DNA of 64,000 bases from Candidatus Micrarchaeota archaeon (GCA_021817505.1 JAKAUU010000016.1:2844-66843); one strand, 5' to 3'. Positions 4,382 to 28,990 are shown, counted from the stretch's first letter. Translations and numbers: made by a program. The notes: a model not told the origin generated them from the sequence alone.

Positions 4382-5413
4382 TCAGTAGATGGACTGCAGA
4401 GCTTCCAGTCGCATAGGCGCCACGTGCTCGTTGACCTTCTTGTCTCCGAACTTCGCCTTCACTCCAGTCACTATCGACATTACCCTTATCTCCTCGCCCA
4501 GCTCCGGAAGCATGCGTGCCCCGAAGATCACGTTTGCATCTCCTGCAACGCCTTCGGTTACCCCGTTTGCTATCGCCGTAGCCTCGCTTATGGTAAGGTT
4601 GCTGCCTCCTGTGACCTGTATGAGTGCACCCTTCGCCCCGTCATTCTCAACTGATAGCAACGGATGCGCCAGAGTCGACTTTATGACCTGCTCCACTCTG
4701 CCAGGACCCTTTCCGGATCCCAGGCTTATTACGGCTGTGCCTGTGTTTCTTACAACCGTGTTAAGATCGGCAAAGTCCAGGTTTATCAGGCTTGGGAAGT
4801 ATATCGTGTCTGATATTCCCTTTACAGCGTTGCCCGTTATATTGTCTACGAACTCAAAGGCCTTGTCCATTGGAAGGTTTGGAACGTATGAGAGCAGCTT
4901 GTCGTTCTCAACGACTATGGTGCAGTCGGCTTCCTTGTTCAGGCGCTCTATGCCCCACTCTGCCTTTATCTTCCTGCTCCTCTCAAGCGCAAATGGATAC
5001 GTGACAGTCGCTATTACCGTTGCGCCTACCTCGCGTGCTATGTGTGCGACTATAGGAGCTGAACCTGTTCCTGTCCCTCCTCCCATGCCTGCAGCGATGA
5101 AGACCAGGCTGTAACCCTCAAGGGCCTGCCTTATCTCCTCCTTGCTGACCTCTGCACACTTTTCAGCTACCTCTGGGAAGCCGCCTGCCCCCAGGCCATT
5201 TGTTATGCTCTTTCCTATGAGCAGCTTCTTGTCAGCCTTTATTATGTTCAGATGTGCTATATCTGTGTTTATAGCTATCTTGTCAGCGCTCTGCATGCCG
5301 TATTTGGATAGCCTGTTGACAAGGTTGCTACCCTGTCCTCCGCAACCCACAACCGCTATCCTCGGCTTGAAGGCATCATAGTCGAACTGCTCGTTTCCCA
5401 TTCTCGCACCCAT
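4382..5413 (-). CDS. ftsZ: Cell division GTPase FtsZ, paralog B
   Basis: GCGGQGSN P-loop region, tubulin signature GGGTGTGSAP, and T7-loop region LINLDFADL. Confidence 0.9.
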   Translation of the reverse strand: MGARMGNEQFDYDAFKPRIAVVGCGGQGSNLVNRLSKYGMQSADKIAINTDIAHLNIIKADKKLLIGKSITNGLGAGGFPEVAEKCAEVSKEEIRQALEGYSLVFIAAGMGGGTGTGSAPIVAHIAREVGATVIATVTYPFALERSRKIKAEWGIERLNKEADCTIVVENDKLLSYVPNLPMDKAFEFVDNITGNAVKGISDTIYFPSLINLDFADLNTVVRNTGTAVISLGSGKGPGRVEQVIKSTLAHPLLSVENDGAKGALIQVTGGSNLTISEATAIANGVTEGVAGDANVIFGARMLPELGEEIRVMSIVTGVKAKFGDKKVNEHVAPMRLEALQSIY

Positions 5414-5437: not shown

Positions 5438-6487
5438 TCAAATGAGATCCAAGTCATACTTCGCAGATTTTTCCTCGCTGCTGAACTTTCCGGCTATGGA
5501 TGAGCCCTTGACTCCGGTTACTATGGCCACTATCTCTATCTGGCCTTCGTAGCCTGGAATTATCCTTGCTCCCCACTTTATGTTTGCCTTAGGGTCCATG
5601 CGTTCGGTTATTATCTCTCCTGCGTGTATTGCGTCTCCGAGGCTCAGGTCAGATGCTCCTGATATGTGGATCAGTGCACCCTTCGCGTTCTCGAAGTCCA
5701 CGTCAAGCAGCTTGTTCTTTATTACAGCTTCTGCCGCGGCAGTTACCTTCTCGTTGCCCTTTCCTACTCCTACGGATATGAAGCCTACGTCTCCGCTGCC
5801 CATGATCGACCTTACGTCTGCAAAGTCTATGTTGATCAGGCTCGGCTGCGTTATTGTCCAGACAAGTCCGCCTATTGCCTTTGCAAGTATGTCATCTGCA
5901 ACTGCGAATGCCTCGTTCATTGGCAGGTTAGGAACCAGCTTTACGAGCCTGTTGTTATCCAGGATTATAACGCTGTCGCTGAACTTTCTCAGCTTCTGGA
6001 TACCCTCCTCTGCCTTTACCTTTCTTACTCTTTCGAGGTCGAATGGGTATGTTACCATCGCGACTACTATAGCGCCCTGCTCCTTTGCTATCTGGGCCAC
6101 TACCGGCATTGCGCCTGTTCCTGTTCCTCCTCCCATACCTGCGCACAGGAAGACGAGTTGCGCCCCATTTATTACCTCTTCTATTGCCTGCCTGTCAGCC
6201 TCTGCTGCCTTGGCTCCTACTTCAGGAGTTCCACCGGCTCCGAGACCTCTTGTCAGGCTCTTTCCAATAAGGACCTTCTTTATTCGGTCGTCAAGCATCT
6301 TAAAGTGCTGAACGTCCGTGTTAATTGCTACGAGATCCGTACCTTTAACACCGCTCTTCAGCAGCCTCTGTGCTGTGTTGTTGCCACCTCCTCCTACCCC
6401 TATGGTGACTATTTTTATCTGGGGTGTAGAGTTGCTGTCCAGTTCTTCGCTCTTATTCGCAAGAAACTCGCTAGAGAAATCCACCAT
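5438..6487 (-). CDS. ftsZ: Cell division GTPase FtsZ, paralog A
   Basis: GVGGGGNN, tubulin signature GGGTGTGAMP, LINIDFADV, and a C-terminal tail ending KYDLDLI. It lies directly upstream of the second ftsZ with a 24-nt gap. Confidence 0.9.
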   Translation of the reverse strand: MVDFSSEFLANKSEELDSNSTPQIKIVTIGVGGGGNNTAQRLLKSGVKGTDLVAINTDVQHFKMLDDRIKKVLIGKSLTRGLGAGGTPEVGAKAAEADRQAIEEVINGAQLVFLCAGMGGGTGTGAMPVVAQIAKEQGAIVVAMVTYPFDLERVRKVKAEEGIQKLRKFSDSVIILDNNRLVKLVPNLPMNEAFAVADDILAKAIGGLVWTITQPSLINIDFADVRSIMGSGDVGFISVGVGKGNEKVTAAAEAVIKNKLLDVDFENAKGALIHISGASDLSLGDAIHAGEIITERMDPKANIKWGARIIPGYEGQIEIVAIVTGVKGSSIAGKFSSEEKSAKYDLDLI

Positions 6488-11401: not shown

Positions 11402-14400
11402 TTACTTGTTCTTGTTTCTAAAGTAAACAAAAAGTGCAACGAACACTATGATAACAGTTATTGCGATAACTGCCTGGAATGCATAGCCAGACTGCGGCTG
11501 AGAGGCAGCAGAGGCTGTTGATGCGGTGTCCACAGGAGCGATTGTGGTCGTCGTAGTAGAATTAAACTTGCTTGCTGGTGCAGACTCGAATACAGCTATG
11601 ACTGGATCTGATGGGGCGGCAAATGTTATGGTGCATGCTGCGATATCTAATATGAATGGGGTTATCTCCTGCCATGTACCGTTCCTCAGAATGAATGGGA
11701 TCATATCAGATGCTGGGATGCTGCAGTTATAGTGCATTGTTAGGTTTGCTGAGATATTCCTGTTGCTGAATGTGTAGTTTACCGCTTTTATCGCAGACAT
11801 ATTTGAAAGAGAAGGTATATCGGCAGGTGCAGCTGCGGCAGTCATGCTGAAGCAGGATGCGGTTACCGGTTTTATGGCGAAGGTCACGTTTAGCGATGGA
11901 TAATTTATTAAATATCCGGAGGTGTCATTGCATATCTGTTCCACTGCTCCTGACGAAGTTACGGAATGGGGCGTTGTTGGGATGGTGGTTATTGTAGTGG
12001 AGGTTGAGGTGATTGAACTGGTAGCAGTTATTGTTCCTGGAAGATGCCCGAAGAAGCCTGTTGATCCCCCAGCATATGGATTTGATACCTGAGTGCCAGT
12101 ATGTATTGTGACGGTGTCTCCTGCGGAACATGCGATTGCATTTGGAGTCGAACTGTCTATCACTTCATAGGAATAAGTTGCCTGTGCTGTAGGGGATGCA
12201 ACCAGTGAATTTGTATTCTGTCCTGCCATCTGGTCTGCAGTTGTGCATGTTGGAGCAGATGCTCCTGCAACTGAGTACCAGTTGTAAGTATATGGTGATG
12301 TTCCTCCAACTGCATTCGCGGTTAATGTTACACTCTGTCCTGGATTTATTATCGGGCCGGCAGGGACGATGGCCCCTGCTGTAATTGCGTTGTTTACAGT
12401 TATTACGTCATTCGATGAGAGTTGTGTCTCAGGGGTTGATGCACTGTCAGTTACACCTATGCAGTATGAGTTTGTTGAGGTTGGACTGACTGTTATGCTG
12501 TTTGATGTTGCCGTTACTGATGAATATGTCGCAAGTACATTTCCACTGTCCTGTGAGCAGGTATTTCCTGTTAATCCAGTATACCACTTTACCGTATAAT
12601 CAGGGGTTCCTCCTGACCATGAAGCAGTAAATGATACTGACTGGCCGCTGTCTATAGTCGGGTTTGAAGGGCTGATTGCCGGGCTGGATAGCACAGGATT
12701 GACTGTTATCTCAGAGGTTACGTCATGGATCTGGATATTGGTGTTGATGATTACTGCGTTGTTGCCGTTCAGGTTTGTCACATAGGCATAGGTTCCGGAA
12801 GGAGCAATGGCCATCCCTTCCGGTGCGTTGAATCCATATGTTATTATGCCTGCTATCGTATTTGTTGCAGCGTTGACGATTGCAACGTTCCTGTTGTCAT
12901 TGATATAAGCATATTCTCCCGTAGGGGAGAAGGCCATTCCAGGATAGGTAATTATATTGGTTATTGCACCTATCACGGTGTTTGTGGCAGTGTTTATTAC
13001 CACAATGTTATTGGTGTTGAAGTTTTCAACATATGCATATGCTCCTGAAGGAGAGAAGGCCACCGATTGAGGGGAGGAAAACCCTGAAGTGATTGCATTT
13101 GTCACAGTATTGGTGGCCGTGTTGATTATCACTACATTGTTTGAGCCTGAATTAGTTATATATGCATATGTTCCTGATGGAGAGAAGGCCACGCCTTGTG
13201 GTCCTTTGATGCTTGCCGATATCGAATTAACTACTGAATTCGTGGCAGTGTCGATGATCGCAACATTGCCACCGTACTGGTTTGTAACATAGGCATAGGT
13301 TCCTGATGGAGAGAAGGCTATGTAACTTTGGCCGTTGAATCCTGAATTTATTACGCCGGTTACTGTATTAGTAGACGTACTGACAATCACAATATTGGTC
13401 GGGATTGTTCCGCTGCAGGCCTCGTTGCAGTTGGCTATATAAGCATAGGTTCCTGATGGAGAGAAGGCAACACCTGAAGGATAACTGAATGGAGAGGTTA
13501 TGGCACTTACGATTGAATATGCACTAATGGCATTGTCAGTCACGAACGCACAGTAGTAGGTGTTCGCCGCAGGGGTAACCGGGGAGAATGTTACTGAAGT
13601 GGCAGAAAGTCCTATGTCCTGTTGGATAAGTGTGGACTGCTGGGTGCATGCAGAGGTTGCTGAAGAGTATAGTGATGCGCTGTAGGTAGGGGTTCCTCCT
13701 GACCATGAAGCAGTAAATGATACTGACTGGCCGCTGTCTATAGTCGGGTTTGAAGGGCTGATTGCCGGGCTGGATAGCACAGGATTGACTGTTATCTCTG
13801 ATGTGACACTCTTTGTTGTCGGCACGCCGGTGTTGATTATAACTAGGACATCTGAGTATATGTTTGTCATGTATGCATAGGCGCCGGTAGGAGATATTGC
13901 AACGCCGCCGCGGTTGTCGAATGGAGAGTGTATTGTGCCGACTATCGAATTTGTGGCAGTGTTGATTATTGAGATGTTGCCCCAGAAGCTTGTTGCATAT
14001 GCATACCCTCCTGAAGGGGCAAAGTAAACGCCGTCGGGGTTGGTAAGTCCTGATCCTGTTACCACACCAACCACAGTGTTTGTGGCAGTGTCGATGATTA
14101 CCGCGTTGTAGGCATTGAAGTTCGTAACATAGGCATAGGTTCCGGAGGTGGAGAAGGCCACGCCAGTAGATGCACTGAATCCGGCAGTTATCGAACCGGT
14201 TACGGAGTTGGTAGCAGTATTGATTATCACTATATTGCCATTGCCTGTTGTACCGCATGACGGACCGCAATTCGCCACGTATGCATAGGTTCCTGATGGA
14301 GAGAAGGATATCCCATATGGGGATGAAAATCCGGAAGATATCGTTCCTGTCACCGTATTCGAAGCAGTGCTGATTATAGATATTGTGTTGCTGCCCATAT

Positions 14401-15292
14401 TTGTTACATAAGCATAGGTTCCTGATGGAGAGAAGGCTATTCCGGCAGGACCATCAAATCCAGAATTTATTGAATTTACAACGGAATTGGTGGCCGTGTT
14501 GATTATCAGCACGTTGTCTGCACCAGATCCTCCGCAGCTTGTCTGGCCGTTTATCTCGTTATTTCCGCTGTTGCAGTTTGCAACATAGGCATAGGAGCCG
14601 TCTGGTGAGAATGCAACCCCGTACAACAGGTTGCCGAGGGAAAAGCTTCTAGATATCGAATATGCATTTGTCGAATTGTCAGTCACGAACGCACAGTAGT
14701 AGGTGTTCGCCGCAGGGGTAACCGGGGAGAATGTAGCAGAACTTGAGGCGAGTCCAGTAACCTGTTCTACCATGGTGGATTGCTGGTTGCAGGTGCTTGT
14801 TGGGGATGAGTACAGCGATACGCTGTAGGTAGGGCTTCCTCCTGTCCATAAAGCAGTGAAGGTCACTGACTGGCCGCTGTCTATTGATGAACTGGATGGG
14901 AAGAGCTTCGGTGTTCCGAGGTCCGGGTTTACGGTTATCACGTCATTCGATGAGAGCTGCGTTGTAGGAGTCGCATCCGTTACACCTATGCAGTATGAGT
15001 TTGTGGTTGTGGGATTGACAACTATGGAATTCGAAGCTGAAGTTATCCCATTGTATACAGCTATCTGGTTCGCTGAATCTTCTGCACAGGTGTTCCCTGA
15101 CGGGCCCGTGTACCACACTGCATTGTAAGGGCTAGTACCTCCGGACCATGTTGAGTATAGTATGGTTGATTGGCCCGTATCTATGGGCGGATTAGTCGGA
15201 GAGATAGAAGGCGTGCCCAGTGTTGCGGCTACGATGCTTGAAGTTGCTAAAAGAATTATCAAGGTTAAGATAACGGGCAATACGCTACGCAT
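11402..15292 (-). CDS. Giant cell-surface protein: signal peptide, five Ig-like modules, two YVTN-type beta-propellers, S/T-rich linker, C-terminal TM anchor
   Basis: 1296 aa. N-terminal signal peptide MRSVLPVILTLIILLATSSIVAA. Many GVAFSPSGTYAYVTN / INTATNSV blade repeats in two blocks. Recurring modules of the form ISPSNPTIDSGQSVSFTASWSGGTP...NTYYCAFVTDN. C-terminal hydrophobic helix AVIAITVIIVFVALFVYF followed by RNKNK. Confidence 0.85.
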   Translation of the reverse strand: MRSVLPVILTLIILLATSSIVAATLGTPSISPTNPPIDTGQSTILYSTWSGGTSPYNAVWYTGPSGNTCAEDSANQIAVYNGITSASNSIVVNPTTTNSYCIGVTDATPTTQLSSNDVITVNPDLGTPKLFPSSSSIDSGQSVTFTALWTGGSPTYSVSLYSSPTSTCNQQSTMVEQVTGLASSSATFSPVTPAANTYYCAFVTDNSTNAYSISRSFSLGNLLYGVAFSPDGSYAYVANCNSGNNEINGQTSCGGSGADNVLIINTATNSVVNSINSGFDGPAGIAFSPSGTYAYVTNMGSNTISIISTASNTVTGTISSGFSSPYGISFSPSGTYAYVANCGPSCGTTGNGNIVIINTATNSVTGSITAGFSASTGVAFSTSGTYAYVTNFNAYNAVIIDTATNTVVGVVTGSGLTNPDGVYFAPSGGYAYATSFWGNISIINTATNSIVGTIHSPFDNRGGVAISPTGAYAYMTNIYSDVLVIINTGVPTTKSVTSEITVNPVLSSPAISPSNPTIDSGQSVSFTASWSGGTPTYSASLYSSATSACTQQSTLIQQDIGLSATSVTFSPVTPAANTYYCAFVTDNAISAYSIVSAITSPFSYPSGVAFSPSGTYAYIANCNEACSGTIPTNIVIVSTSTNTVTGVINSGFNGQSYIAFSPSGTYAYVTNQYGGNVAIIDTATNSVVNSISASIKGPQGVAFSPSGTYAYITNSGSNNVVIINTATNTVTNAITSGFSSPQSVAFSPSGAYAYVENFNTNNIVVINTATNTVIGAITNIITYPGMAFSPTGEYAYINDNRNVAIVNAATNTIAGIITYGFNAPEGMAIAPSGTYAYVTNLNGNNAVIINTNIQIHDVTSEITVNPVLSSPAISPSNPTIDSGQSVSFTASWSGGTPDYTVKWYTGLTGNTCSQDSGNVLATYSSVTATSNSITVSPTSTNSYCIGVTDSASTPETQLSSNDVITVNNAITAGAIVPAGPIINPGQSVTLTANAVGGTSPYTYNWYSVAGASAPTCTTADQMAGQNTNSLVASPTAQATYSYEVIDSSTPNAIACSAGDTVTIHTGTQVSNPYAGGSTGFFGHLPGTITATSSITSTSTTITTIPTTPHSVTSSGAVEQICNDTSGYLINYPSLNVTFAIKPVTASCFSMTAAAAPADIPSLSNMSAIKAVNYTFSNRNISANLTMHYNCSIPASDMIPFILRNGTWQEITPFILDIAACTITFAAPSDPVIAVFESAPASKFNSTTTTTIAPVDTASTASAASQPQSGYAFQAVIAITVIIVFVALFVYFRNKNK
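12602..12712 (-). repeat. 111-bp intragenic direct repeat, identical to 13688-13798
   Basis: Base-by-base comparison shows both copies read aggggttcctcctgaccatgaagcagtaaatgatactgactggccgctgtctatagtcgggtttgaagggctgattgccgggctggatagcacaggattgactgttatctc. They encode the duplicated VNPVLSSPAISPSNPTIDSGQSVSFTASWSGGTP segment. Confidence 0.9.
13532..13591 (-). repeat. 60-bp intragenic direct repeat, identical to 14675-14734
   Basis: Both copies read attgtcagtcacgaacgcacagtagtaggtgttcgccgcaggggtaaccggggagaatgt, encoding FSPVTPAANTYYCAFVTDN. Confidence 0.9.
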
Positions 15293-15383
15293 CTGACAAC
15301 CAACCTACATAACAAAATTTTGATGTAAAAGGTTATATAATATGCGTTTGGCAGAGACAGGTCTGGGAGGACCTTCCATATGC

Positions 15384-17846
15384 TCAGTCAGTGCCCGTGT
15401 TTGCGCTTATGGTAAGATTCAGTTCTGTCGTCTGGTTTGCAGATACACTCACGTTCTTTGGCAGATCGCGCAGGCAGCTAAGGTAATAGCAGTTCATTAG
15501 AGTAATTGAGTATAGACCTGCTGCCACGTTTTGCGAGTACGTCCCGTTCGCAGAGACAGGTATCATGTAATCGTTTGTGCCGTCTGTCTGATTAAGTGCA
15601 AGCTTAAACTGGGAATATGTCGCAGCCTGGTCTATGCTGCCTATGCAGGACTTGGTTATGCTTCCGACAGTGCAGATACCCGTTACCTCGATCCTGCCCT
15701 GTATTGTCCCCATGCCGGTAAGATTTGTCTCTGGCACGGTAATCGTGGCGTTGGAGACATTCAGCTGCATTGAATTCGCCTGTGTTGAATTAGACGGCAT
15801 TGATATTGATACGTTTGCCGTGTTATCATACTGAGATACATTATATGACACGCGTATTGCAAGAGGCCCATAGTACTGATAGTCGGGCACTTTTATCCTA
15901 AGCACTGCTGCCATGCTCTCCCTGCCTGCCGTGCATACTAAGCAGTGTATCTCACCGGTGCATACGGGGCACTTTCCAGGGATATATTCAGACACATTGG
16001 TTATGCTTAACAGGGTGAACCCCTTTGTCAGTATGCTTATGTTACTCAGTAAATACCTTGTTCCTAGATATCCATATCCGCTCATCAGTGGAAGCGCATA
16101 GTTTTCTGTCCCGTTTGTTTCGGCAGTAAACCCTTGCAGCGTCTCGTTATATGTGCTGTTTCCTGCGGAGACCTGCTCATTGACATAACTGACTCCCACT
16201 AGTTTTGACGTATAGTTGCTTATGTTTCCCTTGTCCATAGCAGTGTAATTCGCATACGCTATCCCGGAGTGATTCTCTCCTACGCCGGTAACCCTTATGG
16301 AATAAGACTGGTTTGGTATCAATAGTATCTTTGTTATTCCTCCAAATGCAGGTATTGCGGATGCTTGTGGATGCATTTCGGGAAGTGAGCCTATTGAAAG
16401 AGTTCCATTGAAATGGAGAGTTGTTCCGCTGCCGCTCTTGATAGTCGTGCCTATGGATCTTGTGCAGCCTATGAACTCGCCTATTCCTTCTGATTCAGGA
16501 CAGTTAACAATCCCAGAGGCCAGTACAGGAAGCTCAAGGGTTCCGTTCTGCATTACTATGAAGTTAAGGTAGTTGCTGAACCTCCTTACGAAATCTGCGG
16601 TTGCCTGTGCTTCAAGACTGGACTGGTTAAATGATACAGAATCCTTATGTATAGAGGCAATGGCATTCTCGCTTATGCAGAACCTTCCAAAGCATCCTGG
16701 GCTCTCGGCAGTTGCATTTACGGATTGTGGATATGCCCGGTAACCTTGGTATCCTAACATTATCTCCTGCATGTATCCGTCAAGCTGCAGGCTCGTAAGA
16801 TCCACTGTCGAATTTCCCGTATTCCTTACGCCTAAAGAAATGCTTGTTGAATTGCCATTTGAGAGAAGAGTTGCATTCGTTATCTCTATGCTGCTGTTTG
16901 ACCTGAATATCTCCCTTATCTTTGGATTAAGCTTTCCCCTTTGGCCAACATGGGATGTGTTCTTTACCTCTGATGCGCCTACGAAGACTGCCTTTACGTT
17001 AGGCACCATCACGAAAATGCTTGCGTTGCTCTGCGAGTATATGCTTACTATTGTCGGGTTCATGTTTAGCAGAAGCCCGCTTATGGACGAGTTTGTGCTG
17101 GAATTTATTGACGTTTCTATGTATCCCTGCGGAACCGTGACATTATGGATTATGCCATATATGGTTATGTTTGCCGATGAGATGTTTAGACGCAATTCAT
17201 GTATTTTGCTGTAGTTCTTTATGTTAAGAACGGCTATGGTTTGCGTCTCGTTCGTTAGATTCAGCAGATTTGCCGTTCCTGTTGCGCTGAAGTACTCGAA
17301 TGCGGATGAATTGGCATACATTATGCCTATCGAGGAGTACCTTATGGATAGGGAGTTCGTACCTGGAGGTACCAGAGGAGGATCCGTAAGCTGTATTACA
17401 AAGTCGCCTTGCACAGAATTAGCAGAAGCGGACGGTTGTGAAGAGAGATAAGGTGAGGTTATTGGATATGCAGTAGTGCTGCCTTGGGGCGGATTCTGCA
17501 TGTTCGATATGAGAAGAAGCGCCACAACAGCTATTGCCGCTATTGTGATTATGCCAGCTGCAAAGGCCCTTACTTTGGCTATGTTATAGCCATTGTCCTC
17601 GAGCTTCTTTTCGAAAGATTTATTGTATTCGTAGTACTTCCACTTCCTGCTGTATGGATTGGCAACCTCCTTTATCGCACCTATCCTGAGGAGCTCCTTG
17701 AGGTGCTGGTTTGTTGTTGATTGGCCCAGATCCAGCCTTTCAGATATCTGGGTCATGGTCATTGGCTTCTCTTTGAGCAGGTCTATTATCTTCTTCTTGC
17801 TTTCGAAAAGTTTGCTCATGCAATAACACAATCCTAATCTAGACAC
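15384..17846 (-). CDS. Membrane-tethered winged-helix (ArsR-like) protein with a roughly 700-aa sequon-rich extracytoplasmic domain
   Basis: N-terminal wHTH pattern (KKKIIDLLKEKPMTMTQISERLDLGQSTTNQHLKELLRIGAIKE), then a single TM helix (AFAAGIITIAAIAVVALLLI), then a long domain with dozens of N-x-S/T sequons. The likely true start is M10 at 17819 (MSKLFES). Confidence 0.7.
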   Translation of the reverse strand: MSRLGLCYCMSKLFESKKKIIDLLKEKPMTMTQISERLDLGQSTTNQHLKELLRIGAIKEVANPYSRKWKYYEYNKSFEKKLEDNGYNIAKVRAFAAGIITIAAIAVVALLLISNMQNPPQGSTTAYPITSPYLSSQPSASANSVQGDFVIQLTDPPLVPPGTNSLSIRYSSIGIMYANSSAFEYFSATGTANLLNLTNETQTIAVLNIKNYSKIHELRLNISSANITIYGIIHNVTVPQGYIETSINSSTNSSISGLLLNMNPTIVSIYSQSNASIFVMVPNVKAVFVGASEVKNTSHVGQRGKLNPKIREIFRSNSSIEITNATLLSNGNSTSISLGVRNTGNSTVDLTSLQLDGYMQEIMLGYQGYRAYPQSVNATAESPGCFGRFCISENAIASIHKDSVSFNQSSLEAQATADFVRRFSNYLNFIVMQNGTLELPVLASGIVNCPESEGIGEFIGCTRSIGTTIKSGSGTTLHFNGTLSIGSLPEMHPQASAIPAFGGITKILLIPNQSYSIRVTGVGENHSGIAYANYTAMDKGNISNYTSKLVGVSYVNEQVSAGNSTYNETLQGFTAETNGTENYALPLMSGYGYLGTRYLLSNISILTKGFTLLSITNVSEYIPGKCPVCTGEIHCLVCTAGRESMAAVLRIKVPDYQYYGPLAIRVSYNVSQYDNTANVSISMPSNSTQANSMQLNVSNATITVPETNLTGMGTIQGRIEVTGICTVGSITKSCIGSIDQAATYSQFKLALNQTDGTNDYMIPVSANGTYSQNVAAGLYSITLMNCYYLSCLRDLPKNVSVSANQTTELNLTISANTGTD

Positions 17847-19910: not shown

Positions 19911-20543
19911 ATGGGTATTATGGGGGAGCGCTTGGGCACTTCGAATAATGCATTATTTGAATATTCAGTATGGCTGATTCCTTCAAGGAATTCTGCTTAT
20001 GCAGAGCTTAGGAATGCGATAAATAAGATAAGTTATAAGTATTCGACTCCTTCGTTTGAGCCCCATGTAACATTAATAGGGAGGCTGTTGGTCCCTGAAG
20101 CTTTGGCTATAGAAAAAATATCGGCTATTTCAAATATGGTGGGCCAGATAAAGGTCGAATTTGATCAGATAGACAGGACTGACAAATATTTCAAATCATT
20201 ATTCGTAAGGGTAAAGAAGAGTGATGCGCTTTCAATCGCAGCAAATATTACAAGAGAGGCATTTCAGGAGAAGCATATGTCAGAGTATATGCCGCATTTG
20301 AGCCTTATGTATGCAAATATGCCTTCAGAGATGAAGGATAGGATAATTCATGACTGCAAATTGCAGGCATTGGTCGACAGTATAGATTATGTTGCAATGG
20401 ATAAGGTAAGTCTTTGGCATACTCCTGATGATGTGAGGAGATGGAAGATGATCAGGGAATTTGAACTGGAAAAGCCTGTTGAAGAGTTTAGCCATTATTA
20501 TAAGAATGAGTTGCATTCACATTATACTGCAAAAACAATATGA
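19911..20543 (+). CDS. 2H-phosphoesterase superfamily protein (cyclic phosphodiesterase/LigT-like)
   Basis: Two H-x-T/S-x motifs at the expected spacing: EPHVTLIG and MPHLSLMY. Confidence 0.7.
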   Translation: MGIMGERLGTSNNALFEYSVWLIPSRNSAYAELRNAINKISYKYSTPSFEPHVTLIGRLLVPEALAIEKISAISNMVGQIKVEFDQIDRTDKYFKSLFVRVKKSDALSIAANITREAFQEKHMSEYMPHLSLMYANMPSEMKDRIIHDCKLQALVDSIDYVAMDKVSLWHTPDDVRRWKMIREFELEKPVEEFSHYYKNELHSHYTAKTI

Positions 20544-20556
20544 CATCCTTCCACGT

Positions 20557-20766
20557 CTAAAGACGTGGGTTTCCAACAGGCCGTTTCCTGTATATAGTTC
20601 CTGGATTCATCATGTTTCTTGTGAAGGTCTTGCCGGTTTCTTTGTAATGGCATTTTGCCTTTTCAAGGATAAGGTCGTAGAGCTCCTTTGCAAGGAGCAT
20701 CTGCATGTTCAGGTCTCTCCTCTCCCTCCTTGTCGGATAGACCCTGAACCTGTAACATCGTAACAT
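20557..20766 (-). pseudogene. tnpB: TnpB (IS605 OrfB) remnant: N-terminal ~50 aa fused to the extreme C-terminal tail
   Basis: MLRCYRFRVYPTRRERRDLNMQMLLAKELYDLIL matches the TnpB N-terminal pattern (M..yKfRiYPt.eQ...L......r.vyN). At 69 aa versus the roughly 400 aa expected, most of the protein including the RuvC domain is absent. Confidence 0.7.
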
Positions 20767-20875
20767 AGAATCATCTCTATGTCACCCAGAAACAAGGATA
20801 TCCGGCAGTCAGGTATTATATTTGTTTCACTGCAAATTCATCCAATGCATAAATGCATTGGTTTTCTTTACATAA

Positions 20876-20885
20876 TTTTATAAAA
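20876..20885 (+). promoter_or_regulatory. TATA-box-like TTTTATAAAA about 22-30 nt upstream of the E1 alpha start codons
   Basis: The A/T box sits at the outer edge of the miniature element. Candidate starts are GTG 20907, GTG 20913 and TTG 20916, which implies a leaderless or very short-leader transcript. Confidence 0.4.
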
Positions 20886-20906
20886 CTCTTGCACTAATTC
20901 TTACTG

Positions 20907-21998
20907 GTGCTTGTGTTGAAAAGGGAGGCGTTCAGTGGCAGCGTCACATACTTCCAGATAATGGATGAGAACGGTAATGTAGACAAGGAGCTGATGCCGA
21001 ATTATGTTGATGATAATAAGATACTTGAGATGCTCAAGTACATGGTCCTTGCGCGCGAGATAGATGCTAAGGCCCTGTCGCTTCAGAGACAGGGGCGTGC
21101 AGTAACATACGCTCCGCTTCTTGGGGAAGAGGCGACACAGGTCGGTGCCGCAATGGCGCTGAGGAACAACGATTACTTTGTGCCAAACTTCAGGCAGCAT
21201 GCAGTCTATCTTGTCCGCGGGCTGCCCATGGAGCTTTACTTCCTTTACTGGCGCGGCTATGAAGAGGCGCAGAAGATACCTGAAAATGTAAAGGGATTGC
21301 CGGTGATTGTTCCTGTTTCTACGCAGATGCCGCATGCGGCAGGCATCGCTTTTGCGCAGAAATACCAAAAGACAGGCTCAGCAGTGGTCGCTTTCGTCGG
21401 AGACGGAGGTACCTCGGAGGGCGATTTCTACGAAGCGATAAACTTCGCAGGCGCATGGAATGCCCCTCTTATAACAATAATAGAGAATAACTCATGGGCG
21501 ATATCCGAACCTACAAGGATGCAGACCGCAGCGCAGACTCTTGCGCAGAAGGGAATAGCGGCAGGGATAAAGAGGATAATACAGGTTGACGGCAACGACG
21601 TTATTGCGGTTTACAAGGCAGTAAGGGAAGCGATAGAGGCATCTGATGGAGGTCCGGCAGTGATAGAGGCGCTCACTTATAGGATGGGTCTCCATACCAC
21701 TGCTGATGACCCCACTAAATACAGGCCTGATTCTGAACTTGAGAAGTGGAAGCCCAAGGACCCTATACTAAGGGTAAAAAAATATCTCTCGCAGAAGGGC
21801 TTGTGGAATGATGATATTGAGAAGGCATTCCTTGATGAGAACATGAAGAAGATAGATGAGGCGATAGACAAGGCAGAGAGGTTTGTCCCTGATCCTAAGA
21901 GCATGTTCGAGAATGTATACAGCTTCGTTCCTGATGTTCTGAAGAAGGAGATGGACGAAGCAGTCGGAGAGAATTTCTGGCAGGGTGATTCAGAATGA
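20907..21998 (+). CDS. 2-oxoacid dehydrogenase E1 component, alpha subunit (TPP-dependent)
   Basis: TPP-binding region GDGGTSEGDFYEAINFAGAWNAPLITIIENN. Its stop overlaps the E1 beta start (ATGA at 21995). Confidence 0.9.
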   Translation: MLVLKREAFSGSVTYFQIMDENGNVDKELMPNYVDDNKILEMLKYMVLAREIDAKALSLQRQGRAVTYAPLLGEEATQVGAAMALRNNDYFVPNFRQHAVYLVRGLPMELYFLYWRGYEEAQKIPENVKGLPVIVPVSTQMPHAAGIAFAQKYQKTGSAVVAFVGDGGTSEGDFYEAINFAGAWNAPLITIIENNSWAISEPTRMQTAAQTLAQKGIAAGIKRIIQVDGNDVIAVYKAVREAIEASDGGPAVIEALTYRMGLHTTADDPTKYRPDSELEKWKPKDPILRVKKYLSQKGLWNDDIEKAFLDENMKKIDEAIDKAERFVPDPKSMFENVYSFVPDVLKKEMDEAVGENFWQGDSE

Positions 21999-22960
21999 TG
22001 TCGAATATGGTTACCGCTTTGAACAGTGCGCTTAGCAGCATACTTGAGAATGACAGGAATGCAGTCGTACTTGGGGAGGATGTTGGAAAGGATGGCGGGG
22101 TCTTCAGGGTCACAGACGGCCTTTCCGAGAAATTCGGGGAGAACCGCGTAATAGATACGCCGCTCGCCGAATCGGGCATAATAGGCACGTCGATAGGCAT
22201 GGCGATATCGGGCATGCGCCCCATTCCAGAGATACAGTTTGCAGGCTTCATGTTCCTTGGTTTCAGCCAGCTGGTAAACCATGCTGCAAGATACAGGAGC
22301 AGGAGCAGAGGCTCCTTCAAGGTGCCGATGATAGTGAGGACGCCGGTAAGCGGAGGGGTGCGCACGCTTGAACACCATTCCGAAAGTCCTGAGACCTACT
22401 ACTCGCACATGGGCGGCCTCATAGTGGTTGAGCCGTCCGGACCTTATGATGCAAAAGGGCTTATGATAAAGGCGTCAAAGCTTGATGACCCTGTCGTCTT
22501 CCTTGAACCTACAAAACTCTACAGGTTATTCAAGGAGGAGGTCCCTGAGGAGCCGTATGAGGTTGAGATAGGAAAGGCAAAGACCATTAGAGAGGGGAGT
22601 GAGCTGAGCATAATAACCTATGGGACCATGGTGCCTGTTGTGAAGAGTGTTGTTGAGAAGAGGAAGATTGATGCCGACATAATAGACCTGAGGACGATAA
22701 ACCCTATCGATGAAAACAGTATACTGGAAAGTGTTAAGAAGACCGGAAGGGCGCTTATAGTACATGAGGCATCCCTGAGCTTCGGGGTAGGCGCGGAGGT
22801 ATCGGCGAGAATAGCCGAGAAGGCAATCTTCGACCTTAAGGCGCCTATAATAAGAGTGGCATCGCACTCCCTTCCGTACCCATTCCCAGGTTATGAGAAA
22901 TATTTCATACCTAATGAGCTTAAGGTTTCAAAGGCTATTGACAGGATAATGTCGGTGTAA
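21995..22960 (+). CDS. 2-oxoacid dehydrogenase E1 component, beta subunit
   Basis: VIDTPLAESGIIGTSIGMA and transketolase-like pyrimidine-binding and C-terminal domains; 321 aa. Confidence 0.9.
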   Translation: MMSNMVTALNSALSSILENDRNAVVLGEDVGKDGGVFRVTDGLSEKFGENRVIDTPLAESGIIGTSIGMAISGMRPIPEIQFAGFMFLGFSQLVNHAARYRSRSRGSFKVPMIVRTPVSGGVRTLEHHSESPETYYSHMGGLIVVEPSGPYDAKGLMIKASKLDDPVVFLEPTKLYRLFKEEVPEEPYEVEIGKAKTIREGSELSIITYGTMVPVVKSVVEKRKIDADIIDLRTINPIDENSILESVKKTGRALIVHEASLSFGVGAEVSARIAEKAIFDLKAPIIRVASHSLPYPFPGYEKYFIPNELKVSKAIDRIMSV

Positions 22961-22962
22961 TC

Positions 22963-24180
22963 TTGAAGGAGATAAAATTCGTTGATGTTGGAGAGGGGAT
23001 AACGGAAGGCCATCTGCAGAAGTGGCTGGTCAAGGATGGCGATACCGTAAAGGAGGACCAGGCGGTCGCCCAGATAGAGACGGACAAGGCGATAGTGAAC
23101 ATACCTTCACCGATATCCGGCAGGATAAAGATCAATGCAAAGGAGGATACTGATGTTAAGGTAGGAGACGTGCTTGCAACTGTAGGGGAAGGAGCTGCTG
23201 AAGAGGAGCACAAGAGTGCCCCTGCTGCTACAAAGGGCGCGCAGCAGGAAGCTAAAAAACAGGACACAGCACCTTCTCAGGCAAAAGCTGTTAATGAGGT
23301 ACTCGCTACGCCTTATGTAAGGAAGCTTGCCCGCGACCTTGGAGTGGATCTTGCTTCGGTGCATGGTACAGGGCCGCAAGGCAGGGTCCTTGAGAATGAT
23401 CTCAAGAGTGCTGCGAATCATGCAACCGCTCCTAAGAAGCTTATTCCTAAATTCTCCGAGGTCCTTGAGGAACAGCACTCTGATGAGATAGAGAGGGTGC
23501 CGATGTCGCAGCTCAGGAAGACGATTGCAAAGAACATGGAGCTCTCATGGACAATACCCCGTGCGACGCATATGGATCTGGCAGATGCCAAGCATCTTTC
23601 AGATATTGTGAAAAGGGAGAAGGCGAATGCGGAGAAGTCAGGCTTCAAGCTGACCTTCCTGCCGTTCATAATAAAGGCTGCTGTCGAGGCTCTTAAGGAG
23701 AATCCAGGATTCAATTCAAGCTACGACCATGATAGACAGGAGATAATACTGAAGAAGTATTATAATATAGGGCTTGCTGCAGAATCCCCTGATGGCCTGA
23801 AGGTAGTGGTCATAAGGAATGCCGACAAGAAGAGCATATCTGAGATTGCAAAGGAGATAATGGAGCTGCACAAGAAGGTAGTCGAGAACACGATATCGAT
23901 AGATGAGATGCGCGACGGCACATTCACCATAACCAACATAGGCAGCCTTGGCGGGGGATACCTCTCAGTGCCTATGATAAATTATCCTGAGGTCGGCATA
24001 CTCGGGGTGCATATGATAAAGGAGGTTCCGGTAGTGGAAGACGGGAAGATAGTCATAGGGAGGCAGCTGCCTTTCTCGCTCGTCTTCGACCATAGGGTTG
24101 TCGATGGCGCGGAAGCGGTGAAATTCGGAAATTCTTTCAAGAGATATATTGAGGACCCGGAGTTCCTCGAGATGCTATGA
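22963..24180 (+). CDS. Dihydrolipoamide acyltransferase (E2) with one lipoyl domain
   Basis: Lipoyl attachment site AQIETDKAIVNIPSP, an E3-binding segment (ATPYVRKLARDLGVDL), and the catalytic motif FDHRVVDG. TTG start. Confidence 0.9.
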   Translation: MKEIKFVDVGEGITEGHLQKWLVKDGDTVKEDQAVAQIETDKAIVNIPSPISGRIKINAKEDTDVKVGDVLATVGEGAAEEEHKSAPAATKGAQQEAKKQDTAPSQAKAVNEVLATPYVRKLARDLGVDLASVHGTGPQGRVLENDLKSAANHATAPKKLIPKFSEVLEEQHSDEIERVPMSQLRKTIAKNMELSWTIPRATHMDLADAKHLSDIVKREKANAEKSGFKLTFLPFIIKAAVEALKENPGFNSSYDHDRQEIILKKYYNIGLAAESPDGLKVVVIRNADKKSISEIAKEIMELHKKVVENTISIDEMRDGTFTITNIGSLGGGYLSVPMINYPEVGILGVHMIKEVPVVEDGKIVIGRQLPFSLVFDHRVVDGAEAVKFGNSFKRYIEDPEFLEML

Positions 24181-24181
24181 T

Positions 24182-25546
24182 ATGGTGATGGGCTCCATAC
24201 CTGAAGAGGTAGATATAGCAGTCATAGGGGGAGGAGTTGGCGGCTATGTCGCCGCGATACGCGCTGCAGAGCTCGGCAAGAGCGTAACGATAGTGGAGAA
24301 GGATAAGCTTGGGGGACACTGCCTCAATTATGCATGCATACCCTCAAAGACGATAATACACATAGCTGACCTATTTTACTCTGCAACTCACTCCCAGAAC
24401 CTTGGAATATCAGGTTCCTTGAGCATAGATGCGAAGAGGATGCATGAGTGGAGGATAAGCGTCTCGCAGACTCTTGAGAAAGGGGTCGAGGGGCTCTGCA
24501 GGGCAAACGGGATAGAGATAGTTAAGGGAGAGGCCACCTTCCTCAATTCGAATACGCTTCAGCTTACGAACGGCACCTCGCTCGACTTCAAGAAGGCGAT
24601 AATTGCGACCGGATCCGTTCCGTCTTCTCTCAAAGGCTTTGAATTCAACGGCAGGAATATAATAGACTATAAGCAGGCGCTCTCGCTTGATTACATACCG
24701 AAGAGCATTGCCATAATAGGCGCAGGCTATGTCTCTGTTGAGATCGCAGGGATGTTTGCAAAGCTCGGTTCCTCGGTCCATGTCATAGCAAGGTCCGATG
24801 TGCTCTCAAGGTTCGATCCCGAAGCCGTAGCTTTGGTAAAGAAGAGGCTGGCGAACCTCGGTGCAGTTGTGCATCTTAATGCTGCGCCGTCATCTTATGA
24901 TGGAAAGGTTCTCAGGCTTTCCAGCGGGGAGGAGATACCTGCAGAGGTTGTCGTGGTTGCAATAGGGCTTGTGCCTTATACGGACGGCCTTGAGCTGCAT
25001 AACACAAAGGTCGCTGTTGACGGGAGAGGATTTGTCTCTGTCGATTCATCGCTGCAGACAACTGACCAGAACATACTTGCTATAGGCGATGTAGTCGGGG
25101 AACCGATGCTTGCGCACAAGGCGATAAGACAGGGAGTCATCGCTGCCGAGAAGGCTTCAGGATTGAATTCAGGATTCGACAACATAGTCATACCTGCCGT
25201 AATATTCTCGGACCCGGAGATTGCGATAGCAGGCAGCCTTGATGCAAAGAACGTGAAGAAGTTTCCGATGAGCGCAGTCGGAAGGGGCATTGCGCTTGAC
25301 AGAAAAGAGGGCTTTGTCAAGATGGCTTACGATGATGATAACATAGTCAGGGGTATTGAGATAGTCGGACAGGATGCGAATGCGATGATTGCAGAGGCGG
25401 CGCTTGCGATAGAGATGGGCGCGACTCTCGAAGACATAGCGGATACGATACATCCGCATCCCACATTCTCAGAAGCGGTGCAGGAAGCTGCTGAAGCGGC
25501 GCTCGGAAGGCCTCTTCACTTTTATTACGGAAAGGGGAGCAGATGA
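24182..25546 (+). CDS. lpdA: Dihydrolipoamide dehydrogenase (E3)
   Basis: FAD fold VIGGGVGGY, redox-active disulfide CLNYACIPSK, and C-terminal HPHPTFSE. The start is placed at ATG 24182, 2 nt after the E2 stop; the tracked ORF begins at 24149 inside E2. Confidence 0.9.
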   Translation: MVMGSIPEEVDIAVIGGGVGGYVAAIRAAELGKSVTIVEKDKLGGHCLNYACIPSKTIIHIADLFYSATHSQNLGISGSLSIDAKRMHEWRISVSQTLEKGVEGLCRANGIEIVKGEATFLNSNTLQLTNGTSLDFKKAIIATGSVPSSLKGFEFNGRNIIDYKQALSLDYIPKSIAIIGAGYVSVEIAGMFAKLGSSVHVIARSDVLSRFDPEAVALVKKRLANLGAVVHLNAAPSSYDGKVLRLSSGEEIPAEVVVVAIGLVPYTDGLELHNTKVAVDGRGFVSVDSSLQTTDQNILAIGDVVGEPMLAHKAIRQGVIAAEKASGLNSGFDNIVIPAVIFSDPEIAIAGSLDAKNVKKFPMSAVGRGIALDRKEGFVKMAYDDDNIVRGIEIVGQDANAMIAEAALAIEMGATLEDIADTIHPHPTFSEAVQEAAEAALGRPLHFYYGKGSR

Positions 25547-26322
25547 AGATAACGATAATATGCAAGAAGTACTACAAAGAGATTCAGGAGCTTGAGAAGG
25601 CTTTCGAAGTCTCAAGGAACGGGGACATTTGCATAGCTGTAGGCGGAGACGGAACATTCGTAAAAGCTGCGAGGGAGTTCAACGGGCCGATACTTGCAAT
25701 ACGCGGCAACGAGAGCGATAGTTCGGGCTATTATGCGGATATCAGCATAAGGGAGATGGCGCTCGTTATCAGGAAGCTGAAGAAGAAGGAGTACCTGGTG
25801 GAGAATCTCGGGAATAAGATAGAGCTGTCGTTCAAGGGCAAGAAGCATTATGCAGTCAATGAGATCCTCCTGCACAACTGGCGCGAAGAGGTATACTTCA
25901 GCGTATACTACAGGGATGACCATGCGGAGAAGGCGATATATCCGTACATAATGGCAGGCGACGGCATGCTGGTCACGAGCGAGGTGGGTTCCACCGCATA
26001 CAACAGGTCGGCAGGCGGCCCGGTCATACTCTCGCCAAAACTTCTCTGCGCTACCTTCCTGAATGTAGACGGGCCTTACTCAAATTCGATAATATTGGGG
26101 CCTGACAAGAAGATAGGGGTTAGGATAGAGAAGTACACCGGCGTATTGAGATATGACGGGATAGATGCCGGCAGCATAAAGAAAGGGGAGAGCTTCGAGG
26201 TCTCGTTGTCCAAAAAAGAGCTTAAGATCGTAAGGCTGAACGGAGTCCGCGAGGATATAGCCGTTAAGCTTGCCAGGATAATAAAGGGCAGGATGAGGAG
26301 ACCTGACGGGATAGAGTACTGA
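25543..26322 (+). CDS. nadK: NAD kinase
   Basis: GGDGT motif (IAVGGDGTFV), the NE..L region, and a C-terminal beta-sandwich. Its start overlaps the E3 stop (ATGA). Confidence 0.85.
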   Translation: MKITIICKKYYKEIQELEKAFEVSRNGDICIAVGGDGTFVKAAREFNGPILAIRGNESDSSGYYADISIREMALVIRKLKKKEYLVENLGNKIELSFKGKKHYAVNEILLHNWREEVYFSVYYRDDHAEKAIYPYIMAGDGMLVTSEVGSTAYNRSAGGPVILSPKLLCATFLNVDGPYSNSIILGPDKKIGVRIEKYTGVLRYDGIDAGSIKKGESFEVSLSKKELKIVRLNGVREDIAVKLARIIKGRMRRPDGIEY

Positions 26323-27213
26323 TCAGCGCTTTTTCTGGAAGAATGCATGCCCCAATGCCCTGAATATCAGCTTTGCCGCAAGGAAGTTGGGGGCTATTAA
26401 TCCCGGGATGGGCGCAAGTTCGCAGAAGTCAGCCCCTACGAGTCTTTTCTCCATGAGCAGATTCTTCAGGATAGCGTCCAGCTCTGCAAATCTGATGCCG
26501 TTGGGTTCCGGAGTACCTACGCTTGGCATCTCCCCGTTGTCAAGCACATCCATGTCTATCGTTATGTAGATGTTTTTCTTAGTGCGCTTGCTTATCATGC
26601 TTGCAATCTCCTTTGCTGAAAGATCCCGCATGTCCTTCATGTATAATATGTCATCCGAATATTTCTTTGCGCTCTCGGCATCTATGCTCCTTACTCCTAC
26701 GCTGTAGCAGCTTTTGCATGCCTCCTTCGCGCGTGCCATTATGCATGCGTGCGAGTACCTGCTGCCCATGTACTCATCCCTGTAGTCGGAATGTGCGTCG
26801 AAGTGTATAACACTGAAATCATTCGAATGCTTTGCAATGGCGCGTATGTTGGCTATGGCAAGGGAGTGCTCCCCGCCTATTATTACCGGTATCTTTCCTG
26901 CTTCGATGACAAGAGAGCATTCCTTTTCCAGCCAGTTTATCGTCTCTTCCGGAGAGTTAACGCTTGGCTGCATCTCGTCGGTGGTGTATATCCCTATATC
27001 GGTTATCTCTCGCTTGTACTCTTCGTCGTAGAGTTCGATGTTCCTGCTGGCTTCTATTATCGCATGCGGGCCGTCCCTGGAGCCTGATTTGTACGAAGTA
27101 GTGGAATCATAAGGGACAGGTATCGCGACCACCTTTGCGCTGTCAAAATCCTGGTCTTCTATCCCGAATAAGTTGTATGGGGGCAGTTGATGAAGCAGTT
27201 TCATTATTATCAC
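26323..27213 (-). CDS. speB: Agmatinase (arginase/ureohydrolase family)
   Basis: Mn-binding motifs GGEHS, HFDAHSD and DMDVLD. Confidence 0.85.
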   Translation of the reverse strand: MIIMKLLHQLPPYNLFGIEDQDFDSAKVVAIPVPYDSTTSYKSGSRDGPHAIIEASRNIELYDEEYKREITDIGIYTTDEMQPSVNSPEETINWLEKECSLVIEAGKIPVIIGGEHSLAIANIRAIAKHSNDFSVIHFDAHSDYRDEYMGSRYSHACIMARAKEACKSCYSVGVRSIDAESAKKYSDDILYMKDMRDLSAKEIASMISKRTKKNIYITIDMDVLDNGEMPSVGTPEPNGIRFAELDAILKNLLMEKRLVGADFCELAPIPGLIAPNFLAAKLIFRALGHAFFQKKR

Positions 27214-27232
27214 GCCATTAATCGCAAATTAA

Positions 27233-27637: not shown

Positions 27638-27702
27638 AGGTTAACACTTATAGGACACGTCCGTATATAAAGTATAAACTTTAACAATAATAAACGTTTG
27701 GA

Positions 27703-28077: not shown

Positions 28078-28174
28078 TTGGCATGCTGGCAATGGGTTTA
28101 TATTTTTATTCCTTGTTATTCTTATGGTAATTTTGCTTCTTATCCGTGATTAAGACAATTAAACAAGTGGTATA

Positions 28175-28789: not shown

Positions 28790-28801
28790 TAAGGTGTATT
28801 T

Positions 28802-28990
28802 ATGGAATTAGCATGCAGGAAGTGCAATCTTATAATATCGCAGGGCAATACCTGCCCTGTCTGCAACGTTTCTAATCTTACCTCGAAGTGGAGCGGCTAC
28901 ATAGCGGTGCTCAACGTTGAGAAATCGGACATAGCAAAAAGGATGGAGATCAAGATAAACGGCGCTTATGCGATAAGCATAAACGGCTGA
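28802..28990 (+). CDS. spt4: Transcription elongation factor Spt4 (RpoE'')
   Basis: 62 aa, zinc ribbon CRKCN...CPVCN followed by W.G, located directly after rpo7. Confidence 0.85.
   Translation: MELACRKCNLIISQGNTCPVCNVSNLTSKWSGYIAVLNVEKSDIAKRMEIKINGAYAISING

Follow-up and report, generated by a model that had tools for sequence, protein, structure and literature searches.

A predicted modular double-propeller surface protein of a Micrarchaeota archaeon with gene conversion between its immunoglobulin-like modules

Bacterial repeat adhesins such as the streptococcal Rib/alpha-C, the staphylococcal Sdr/Aap and the RTX adhesins are homogenised by intragenic recombination. In the excerpted part of PMC5498576, the 'surface layer protein' of the archaeon Methanosarcina mazei (PDB 1L0Q) is listed as a tandem YVTN β-propeller combined with PKD (Jing et al. 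2002, cited there). The same part describes, for the micrarchaeon 'Ca. Mancarchaeum acidiphilum' Mia14, strain-specific PKD/YVTN/Kelch-propeller surface proteins (CARDB-fused), and proposes the PKD/YVTN proteins for cell-cell interaction with the Thermoplasmatales host (PMC5498576). Here a gene for a large protein of this kind was analysed in a stretch of 64,000 nucleotides from Candidatus Micrarchaeota archaeon (GCA_021817505.1 JAKAUU010000016.1:2844-66843), in the following called the window. The encoded protein has a mass of 132 kDa, an isoelectric point of 4.09 and a Ser+Thr content of 28 %. It is probably best explained as a modular surface protein, anchored by a conserved C-terminal domain (CTD), in whose gene recent conversion tracts between immunoglobulin-like (Ig) modules overlie an old duplication of an Ig-propeller unit. 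The initial annotation had read the order signal peptide, two Ig modules, propeller, Ig module, propeller, two Ig modules, linker rich in serine and threonine (S/T), further domain and transmembrane (TM) anchor, and this order was confirmed. The features are given below; the structural statements refer to an AlphaFold2 (AF2) model of residues 97-1296 calculated with 59 homologues as input.

11402..15292, minus strand: complete gene, an intact open reading frame (ORF) of 3891 nt with ATG start, 1296 aa
15224..15292, minus strand: putative signal peptide, aa 1-23, MRSVLPVILTLIILLATSSIVAA|T, a hydrophobic N-terminal stretch ending in ..VAA
14924..15223, minus strand: Ig1, class-B Ig-like module, aa 24-123, Cys pair 69/101
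14648..14923, minus strand: Ig2, class-A Ig-like module, aa 124-215, Cys pair 168/200, β-sandwich in the AF2 model
13802..14647, minus strand: propeller 1 (P1), six YVTN blades, aa 216-497, seen in TIGR02276, the AF2 strands and the PDB 1L0Q match
13508..13801, minus strand: Ig3, class-A Ig-like module, aa 498-595, N-part as in Ig4, C-part as in Ig2
12719..13507, minus strand: propeller 2 (P2), six YVTN blades, aa 596-858, seen in 24 strands and the Pizza6 alignment
12407..12718, minus strand: Ig4, mosaic Ig-like module, aa 859-962, class-A N-part apparently copied from Ig3, class-B C-part like that of Ig1
12119..12406, minus strand: Ig5, Ig/PKD-like module, aa 963-1058, β-sandwich in the AF2 model
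11969..12118, minus strand: S/T-rich linker, aa 1059-1108, with the conserved motif QVSNPYAGG.TG.FG
11582..11968, minus strand: CTD, aa 1109-1237, β-sandwich with 12 predicted strands and 4 conserved Cys
11405..11581, minus strand: S/T stalk, aa 1238-1266, predicted TM helix, ~aa 1267-1290, and basic tail RNKNK

The propellers belong to the YVTN repeat family, as TIGR02276 (NCBIfam YVTN repeat) scored 149.1 bits against a cut-off of 27.85 with 6 significant stretches. Twelve blade units are visible in the DNA, with a start-to-start spacing of 123-150 nt within each propeller and a single one of 177 nt; blade 1 of P1 carries a Cys-containing insertion, NSGNNEINGQTSCGGSGADN. The mean predicted local distance difference test score (pLDDT) of the AF2 model was 79.8, mostly above 90 in both propellers, and in this model the YVTN repeats fold as β-propellers with 24 strands each, equal to six four-stranded blades. 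Six sequence repeats per propeller agree with the strand count, and Pizza6 proteins, six-bladed designs of 252-256 aa, align with P2 (263 aa) from one end to the other, thus the seven blades per propeller expected in the initial annotation were replaced by six. Foldseek with the whole 1200-residue model returned generic tandem-propeller matches, 1L0Q being at rank 4. The five Ig-like modules were modelled as β-sandwiches with a pLDDT of ~80-85, each with one Cys pair 32-39 residues apart. Over the whole protein the Pfam profile Ig_3 exceeded its cut-off of 30 with 35.3 bits, but each single module stayed under this value; Ig5 scored 22.5 bits with Ig_3 and 19.9 bits with the K319L-like PKD profile, both under the cut-offs, and the PKD profile gave 14.7 against a cut-off of 23.5. 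Residues 1064-1107 of the linker had a pLDDT below 50 and were taken as disordered. The N-terminus resembles a Sec-type signal peptide, and the model suggests the topology of a type-I membrane-anchored surface protein which is probably glycosylated. Eight of the 11 N-X-S/T sequons lie inside the CTD and a ninth at residue 1244 just past it. The C-terminus ...QPQSGYAFQAVIAITVIIVFVALFVYFRNKNK is without PGF, and the NCBIfam scan at E <= 0.01 gave no PGF-CTERM family.

The best solved relative was 1L0Q, to which the protein aligned blade for blade (phmmer, E = 2e-56). Both share the repeat family and the order of a propeller followed by an Ig/PKD-type β-sandwich in an archaeal extracellular protein. 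1L0Q, described as seven-bladed, differs from the six blades per propeller of the window protein, which has furthermore two propellers, five Ig-like modules missing the PKD Pfam cut-off, a CTD of its own and a TM anchor at the C-terminus. The likeness to the bacterial repeat adhesins lies in an Ig-like stalk that would present a ligand-binding head, in DNA-identical repeats attributed to recombination and in a repeat number varying between strains. Those adhesins, however, are long arrays of near-identical tandem repeats, whereas diverged modules with two short converted tracts were found here, and they lack the duplicated propeller 'heads', the archaeal origin and the type-I TM anchor of the window protein. 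The Mia14 proteins, compared by description, come from the same phylum and are of the same kind, both sets being fast-evolving multigene sets; unlike them, the window protein yielded no CARDB module in profile scans. Intragenic conversion and module turnover, as observed here, are not mentioned for the Mia14 proteins in the excerpted part of PMC5498576.

Two segments at module boundaries had been reported as duplicated without mismatch, and both repeats are indeed exact and also maximal:

13688..13798, minus strand: 111-bp exact tract, Ig3 copy, aa 499-535, putative donor
12602..12712, minus strand: 111-bp exact tract, Ig4 copy, aa 861-897, putative acceptor
14675..14734, minus strand: 60-bp exact tract, end of Ig2, aa 187-206
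13532..13591, minus strand: 60-bp exact tract, end of Ig3, aa 568-587

The longer tract spans the first 37 residues of Ig3 and Ig4, the shorter one the last strands of Ig2 and Ig3. Besides them, the window contains a single other exact direct repeat of >=30 bp, a 30-mer between blades, and the longest exact repeat in 200 codon shuffles of the gene had a mean of 12 bp and was never longer than 16 bp. A blade unit of about 24 nt, which was said to be reused many times, is real, but its frequency was overstated: the 25-mer CATAGGTTCCTGATGGAGAGAAGGC occurs exactly three times and the 24-mer four times. With up to 3 mismatches there were 6 matches versus 0 expected; elsewhere the 12 blade copies are 64-76 % alike. 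Translated, the unit gives (A)FSPSGTYA(Y), a conserved motif of the blades.

The identity of the Ig tracts stands out from the modules around them. A codon-based profile of Ig2-P1-Ig3 against Ig3-P2-Ig4 showed 48-77 % identity per 60 nt in the propellers, 61 % at the DNA level overall, and 100 % islands in the Ig tracts dropping abruptly to ~40 %; outside the tracts the Ig modules had 43-66 % DNA identity. Codon pairs were counted at residues conserved between paired modules. Synonymous differences between Ig2 and Ig3 amounted to 42 % outside the tract and to 0 of 20 inside (P = 1.6e-5), between Ig3 and Ig4 to 67 % outside and 0 of 36 inside (P = 6.7e-18), and 41 % of the residues conserved between P1 and P2 are encoded by different codons. 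Four-taxon site patterns were obtained with the orthologue on contig L017, which is titled Candidatus Micrarchaeota archaeon and is syntenic with the window. For Ig2/Ig3 20 sites were concerted, 3 orthologous and 5 other, for the control Ig1/Ig2 10 concerted, 43 orthologous and 3 other. Ig2 and Ig3 are more alike within the genome than between orthologues while their flanks are diverged, the pattern of concerted evolution. The insertion NSGNNEINGQTSCGGSGADN in blade 1 is common to the orthologous P1s and missing from both P2s; since the P1s share it, the propellers were duplicated before the two species separated, and later conversion gave rise to the exact tracts. Ig4 ends in a class-B C-part (WYTG...NSYCIGVTD, as in Ig1), its N-part being 71 % identical to class-A N-parts of other proteins and 53 % to class B. 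A class-A N-part on a class-B C-part indicates that the 111-bp tract was copied from Ig3 to Ig4. In the sequence of events that we propose, an unequal crossover mediated by Ig modules would have produced the old Ig-propeller duplication and the hybrid composition of Ig3. One conversion tract would then have copied the N-part of Ig3 into Ig4, another would have homogenised the C-parts of Ig2 and Ig3, and conversion would hold the most similar Ig segments identical while the propellers diverge.

The initial annotation had named very recent duplication or ongoing gene conversion as the source of the perfect identity, and conversion accounts for the observations where a recent duplication does not. 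A very recent tandem duplication of the Ig-propeller unit, without conversion, would explain the make-up of Ig3, because exactly this hybrid of an Ig4-like N-part and an Ig2-like C-part would result if Ig4 and Ig2 took part in an unequal crossover. The DNA of P1 and P2 between the junctions is, however, only ~61 % identical, with the codon differences given above, and L017, whose flanking genes encode proteins of 81-87 % identity, already has the series Ig2-P1-Ig3-P2 with the P1 insertion kept; we therefore hold a recent duplication to be most improbable. Selection on the protein or on an RNA or DNA element instead of recombination has an even smaller probability. The tracts do encode conserved Ig strands, and blade motifs also retain identities of 25-30 nt, but 0 synonymous differences in 56 codons contrast with a rate of 42-67 % at conserved residues of the flanks, thus selection at the protein level is unable to explain the identity. 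Moreover, the orthologues have other sequences at these positions, again shared within each gene, and scanning the window for Rfam families and tRNAs gave no match, so Rfam does not speak for a structured element. Diversity-generating retroelements (DGRs) have repeats of ~110 bp, target surface proteins and are common in DPANN, a general fit in repeat length and target that would make the tracts template and variable repeats. Against this, both copies are coding and identical, without adenine-specific mismatches, and no reverse transcriptase, integrase or transposase was present among the ORFs scanned in the window; an origin from a DGR has next to no probability, and a mobile-element origin was rejected on the same observations.

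An assembly artefact, either a collapse or a chimeric join at the repeats which could concern the whole double-propeller gene, was named in the initial annotation as what could overturn the finding. The data are short-read metagenomic, several assemblies break near the gene and leave contigs of 4.3-4.8 kb, and one contig has a deletion between 26-bp repeats. On the other side, the 3891-nt gene was recovered in full and identical length in 16 other contigs from different samples, including three deposited metagenome-assembled genomes (MAGs). These comprise three alleles with 0, 1 and 10-11 single-nucleotide polymorphisms (SNPs), and no allele has a mismatch between the copies of either tract. 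All 13 ENA contigs among the 16 have k141 in their names, presumably the 141-nt k-mer of the assembler, which is longer than both repeats, and the order Ig2-P1-Ig3-P2 recurs in L017, a contig from another study named in a different (NODE) style. On these grounds collapse or chimerism of the gene is very unlikely, and an artefact as the source of the repeats appears to us extremely improbable, on a level with selection.

Several points weigh against the favoured reading of an anchored surface protein with recent conversion over an old duplication. The 16 assemblies seem to share a single study and a single assembler as their source. The site patterns of P1/P2 were ambiguous (34 concerted, 37 orthologous, 17 other), and the age of the propeller duplication is based mainly on the shared architecture and the shared insertion. 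P2 is 59-61 % identical at the protein level to propellers of other family members but 53 % to that of the L017 orthologue, and the Ig3-P2 unit could have been imported from a paralogue rather than duplicated within the gene. The paralogues within one MAG share only one segment of 287 bp at 90 % identity. The loss of one blade described below for contig L003 was found on a single contig of 4.3 kb and could be an artefact of the assembler. Finally, hydrophobicity and the AF2 model are the sole basis on which the signal peptide and the TM helix are predicted.

A recent exchange among paralogues was considered separately and rejected in view of the lone 287-bp segment in one MAG and of the tandem paralogues on L025, which share only a 29-bp exact match. 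On this contig P0006 (L025 5636-10120) stands in tandem with a family member of 1494 aa. The family member P0016 (L022 / L023 9345-13900) adjoins a giant ORF of 3541-3708 aa, and the upstream end of this locus carries an IS605-type TnpB gene. Four contigs of 4.3-4.8 kb (L003, L008, L015, L016) break ~300-420 bp upstream and ~140-510 bp downstream of the surface-protein gene, and such contigs holding little beyond the gene hint at strain-level variation in the flanks. L009 and L010 have 0 SNPs in the gene, yet ~20 and 9 differences across 6 kb of flanks.

The proneness of the gene to expansion, contraction and shuffling of modules, for which a comparison of orthologues had been suggested, was evident in that comparison. 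Three syntenic orthologues, each accompanied by the genes for an NTP-transferase and a helix-turn-helix (HTH)-TM protein, have 1113, 1296 and 1374 aa and different module sets; they differ in entire modules, and the break points fall on the boundaries of Ig modules. The L017 orthologue (1113 aa) has Ig2-P1-Ig3-P2 and is without Ig4-Ig5. In the L024 orthologue (P0004, 1374 aa), whose flanking NTP-transferase and HTH-TM protein are 89 % and 59 % identical to those of the window, P1 is directly followed by an Ig4-type module, Ig5, linker and CTD, and an extra N-terminal propeller is present; compared with it, the window gene has an extra Ig3-P2 unit. The target diverges fast, with 60 % identity where neighbouring genes show 81-89 %. 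The protein belongs to a multigene family that combines Ig modules and propellers variously on the same CTD anchor: 1-3 propellers and 2 to at least 6 Ig modules were found, and one related MAG has four paralogue loci besides the orthologue. Other family members contain exact Ig-Ig or blade-blade repeats of 29-46 bp.

The number of blades varies as well. Contig L003 (sample ERZ27237454; P0124, 1246 aa) carries the window allele minus a precise 150 bp and without any other difference; the deletion lies between two blade repeats and removes 50 aa, one blade of P2. Its end points and four further pairs of family members with single-blade indels are:

13293..13318, minus strand: 26-bp exact blade repeat, one end point of the 150-bp deletion in L003
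13443..13468, minus strand: 26-bp exact blade repeat, the other end point of this deletion
P0024 / P0029: indels of 42 aa and 50 aa at 99.2 % identity
P0020 / P0027: indel of 43 aa at 99.8 % identity
P0010 / P0009: indel of 43 aa at 96.9 % identity
P0025 / P0026: indel of 42 aa at 85 % identity

Including the window protein and P0124, single-blade indels were found in five pairs. In the near-identical pairs they could be real polymorphism or artefacts of the assembler; that the pair with 85 % identity has a blade indel too argues for a real change of the blade number over evolutionary time. Homology between Ig modules and between blades would drive this gain and loss of modules and blades.

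The CTD modelled alone gave a confident β-sandwich (AF2 pLDDT 84.9, predicted template modelling score 0.80), its four Cys are nearly invariant, and the motif HY.CSIP.SD..PFILRNGTW is conserved. No Pfam family was assigned to it in the profile scan. The best Foldseek match was the ankyrin ZU5 domain (template modelling score 0.65, E = 9e-4, 11 % identity), next to a weak match to GAIN. The ZU5 domains of ankyrin, UNC5 and PIDD and the GAIN domains are β-sandwiches of similar size, but with 11 % identity, no profile match, and four conserved Cys and dense N-glycosylation sequons specific to the CTD, the likeness of the models is a resemblance and not a membership. Some ZU5 and GAIN domains are membrane-adjacent and self-cleaving; by analogy, a self-cleaving shedding module is a possibility for the CTD. 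A word-index homology search with the CTD alone gave short fragments only; in its place, 1.84 billion representative proteins were scanned exhaustively with HMMER. The CTD was present in 324 representative clusters (among them P0288-P0436), in proteins of 200-2455 aa, and its position was nearly always 50-60 residues from the C-terminus. Among ten other carriers that were scanned, two had YVTN-type propellers, seven were without any Pfam match and one was mostly unannotated. The varied carriers indicate that the CTD is a general membrane-proximal module under differing ectodomains.

A role in host attachment had been tied to the condition that the organism is an episymbiotic archaeon of the DPANN type, and database labels and synteny place it in the Micrarchaeota. 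The named relatives of the GluRS encoded in the window belong to Candidatus Micrarchaeota, Micrarchaeaceae or Micrarchaeia at ~50-54 % identity. Proteins of the window and of L017 are identical to 86 % for the NTP-transferase, 60 % for the HTH-TM protein, 60 % for the target, 81 % for Fic and 87 % for the DNA ligase, and a paper on acid-mine-drainage metagenomes lists SRP226684, the dataset from which L017 derives. Judged from these sequences, the organism is an acid-mine-drainage-type Micrarchaeota (DPANN) archaeon. Some close homologues and some GluRS relatives (P0003, P0073, P0088, P0232, P0276) are labelled 'Candidatus Marsarchaeota', the bulk being Micrarchaeota; the deviating names probably reflect noise in the labelling or binning of public MAGs. 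An origin from Marsarchaeota was rejected, for the named GluRS relatives are overwhelmingly Micrarchaeota or Micrarchaeia and L017 is labelled Micrarchaeota.

Concerning function, the propellers may be ligand-binding heads for contact with other cells, a host or a matrix. The Ig spacers on a glycosylated stalk would hold these heads off the membrane for contact with host cells or matrix. Analogy and the predicted topology suggest a role in host attachment or adhesion as a hypothesis, and the protein is a reasonable candidate for contact with host cells. The initial annotation had also considered an S-layer-like protein, a view that received no support: neither an S-layer N/C nor an MSTP-like tile family was found in the Pfam and NCBIfam scans of the protein, and the S-layer protein of Micrarchaeota, SLP_Mh, is a different one with PF05123-type/MSTP-like domains. 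The deposition of 1L0Q as 'surface layer protein' and the large, acidic, S/T-rich and C-terminally anchored chain would suit a lattice-forming S-layer protein of this archaeon, but several paralogues per genome and a variable architecture are unlike a lattice subunit, and we consider such a role hardly probable. Somewhat less remote, though still improbable, is that the propellers are extracellular enzymes (lactonase, arylesterase, PQQ-type) and the protein a surface-tethered hydrolase or oxidoreductase rather than a binding protein. Pfam Lactonase and Cytochrom_D1 scored 50.7 bits (cut-off 21.7) and 41.8 bits (cut-off 25.5), and partial matches to PQQ-associated and hydrazine-synthase propellers were obtained. 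These matches, however, span only 2-3 blades, corresponding to a generic YVTN repeat signal, and every equivalog model stayed far under its cut-off, with 78.9 against 400 for YncE (NF052280), 155 against 287 for TIGR03866 (PQQ_ABC_repeats) and 29 against 500 for 6-phosphogluconolactonase. No catalytic residues or cofactor motifs were identified in the propellers, and the name 'YncE family' on homologues is a generic label.

Beyond the binding role, the Ig modules might act as built-in recombination sites. In this rather unlikely scenario, Ig and blade homology would make CTD-anchored variants differing in the number of propellers, Ig spacers and blades at appreciable frequency within populations, the 150-bp deletion and the blade indels would be standing variation, and this recombination-based system of surface variation would tune host recognition or evade recognition by host or viruses in a DPANN symbiont.

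The surroundings of the gene contained the following features:

15333..15340, minus strand: TATA-like TTATATAA, located 41-48 nt before the ATG within the 91-bp spacer that follows the HTH gene
15384-17846, minus strand, called start 17819: gene directly upstream, 811-820 aa
10716-11401: spacer between the target and the Fic gene, 686 nt, non-coding, 18.4 % guanine plus cytosine (GC)
4382-5413 and 5438-6487, minus strand: two adjacent FtsZ paralogues
20538-20884 and 37218-37564: arms of a 347-nt inverted repeat, 94 % complementary
20885-37217: 16.3-kb segment bracketed by these arms
33605-34933, plus strand: second YVTN-type protein, 442 aa, Pfam Lactonase/YVTN signal at aa 327-436, inside the invertible segment
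52504-53733, minus strand: CARDB/NPCBM-associated domain protein beside an ABC-2 transporter
41909-43234, minus strand: T2SSE/type IV pilus ATPase
39341-41086, plus strand: PMT_2 glycosyltransferase
56347-57261, plus strand: GT2 glycosyltransferase

The last four products are envelope-related. The TATA-like element is a possible promoter serving the surface-protein gene alone. The upstream protein has an N-terminal ArsR-type winged HTH, one TM helix at ~aa 83-105 and an extracellular part of ~700 aa with DUF4382 and 41 N-X-S/T sequons. Its gene is syntenic with the target in the window, L017 and L024 and diverges equally fast (59-60 %); the product might serve as a membrane-tethered one-component regulator for the surface protein. 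The equivalent spacer in L017 has 688 nt and 17 % GC, while L024 is without the spacer and has a different gene there. The 16.3-kb segment contains the 2-oxoacid dehydrogenase operon, GluRS, an RrnaAD methyltransferase, the 442-aa YVTN protein and an AAA-TPR protein. On contig L001, from the same species and with 1 SNP in the target, it lies in the opposite orientation, joined through a repeat arm, thus both orientations of the segment exist among the assemblies. The rest of the window is ordinary chromosome with the 2-oxoacid dehydrogenase operon, SDH, fumarase, FtsY, type IV pilus ATPase, diphthamide synthase, KaiC and DNA ligase.

Surface proteins with YVTN and PKD domains were already known from Micrarchaeota, as was recombination in surface proteins that bear repeats, and the advance is incremental in this respect. 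New are a clean case of intragenic conversion and the definition of a membrane-proximal CTD that had not been annotated, which could serve to list the surface proteins of these organisms. Conversion and module turnover of the gene can be read directly from existing metagenomes. For the molecules by which DPANN archaea recognise and attach to their hosts few candidates are available, and this gene offers a concrete and well-delimited one.

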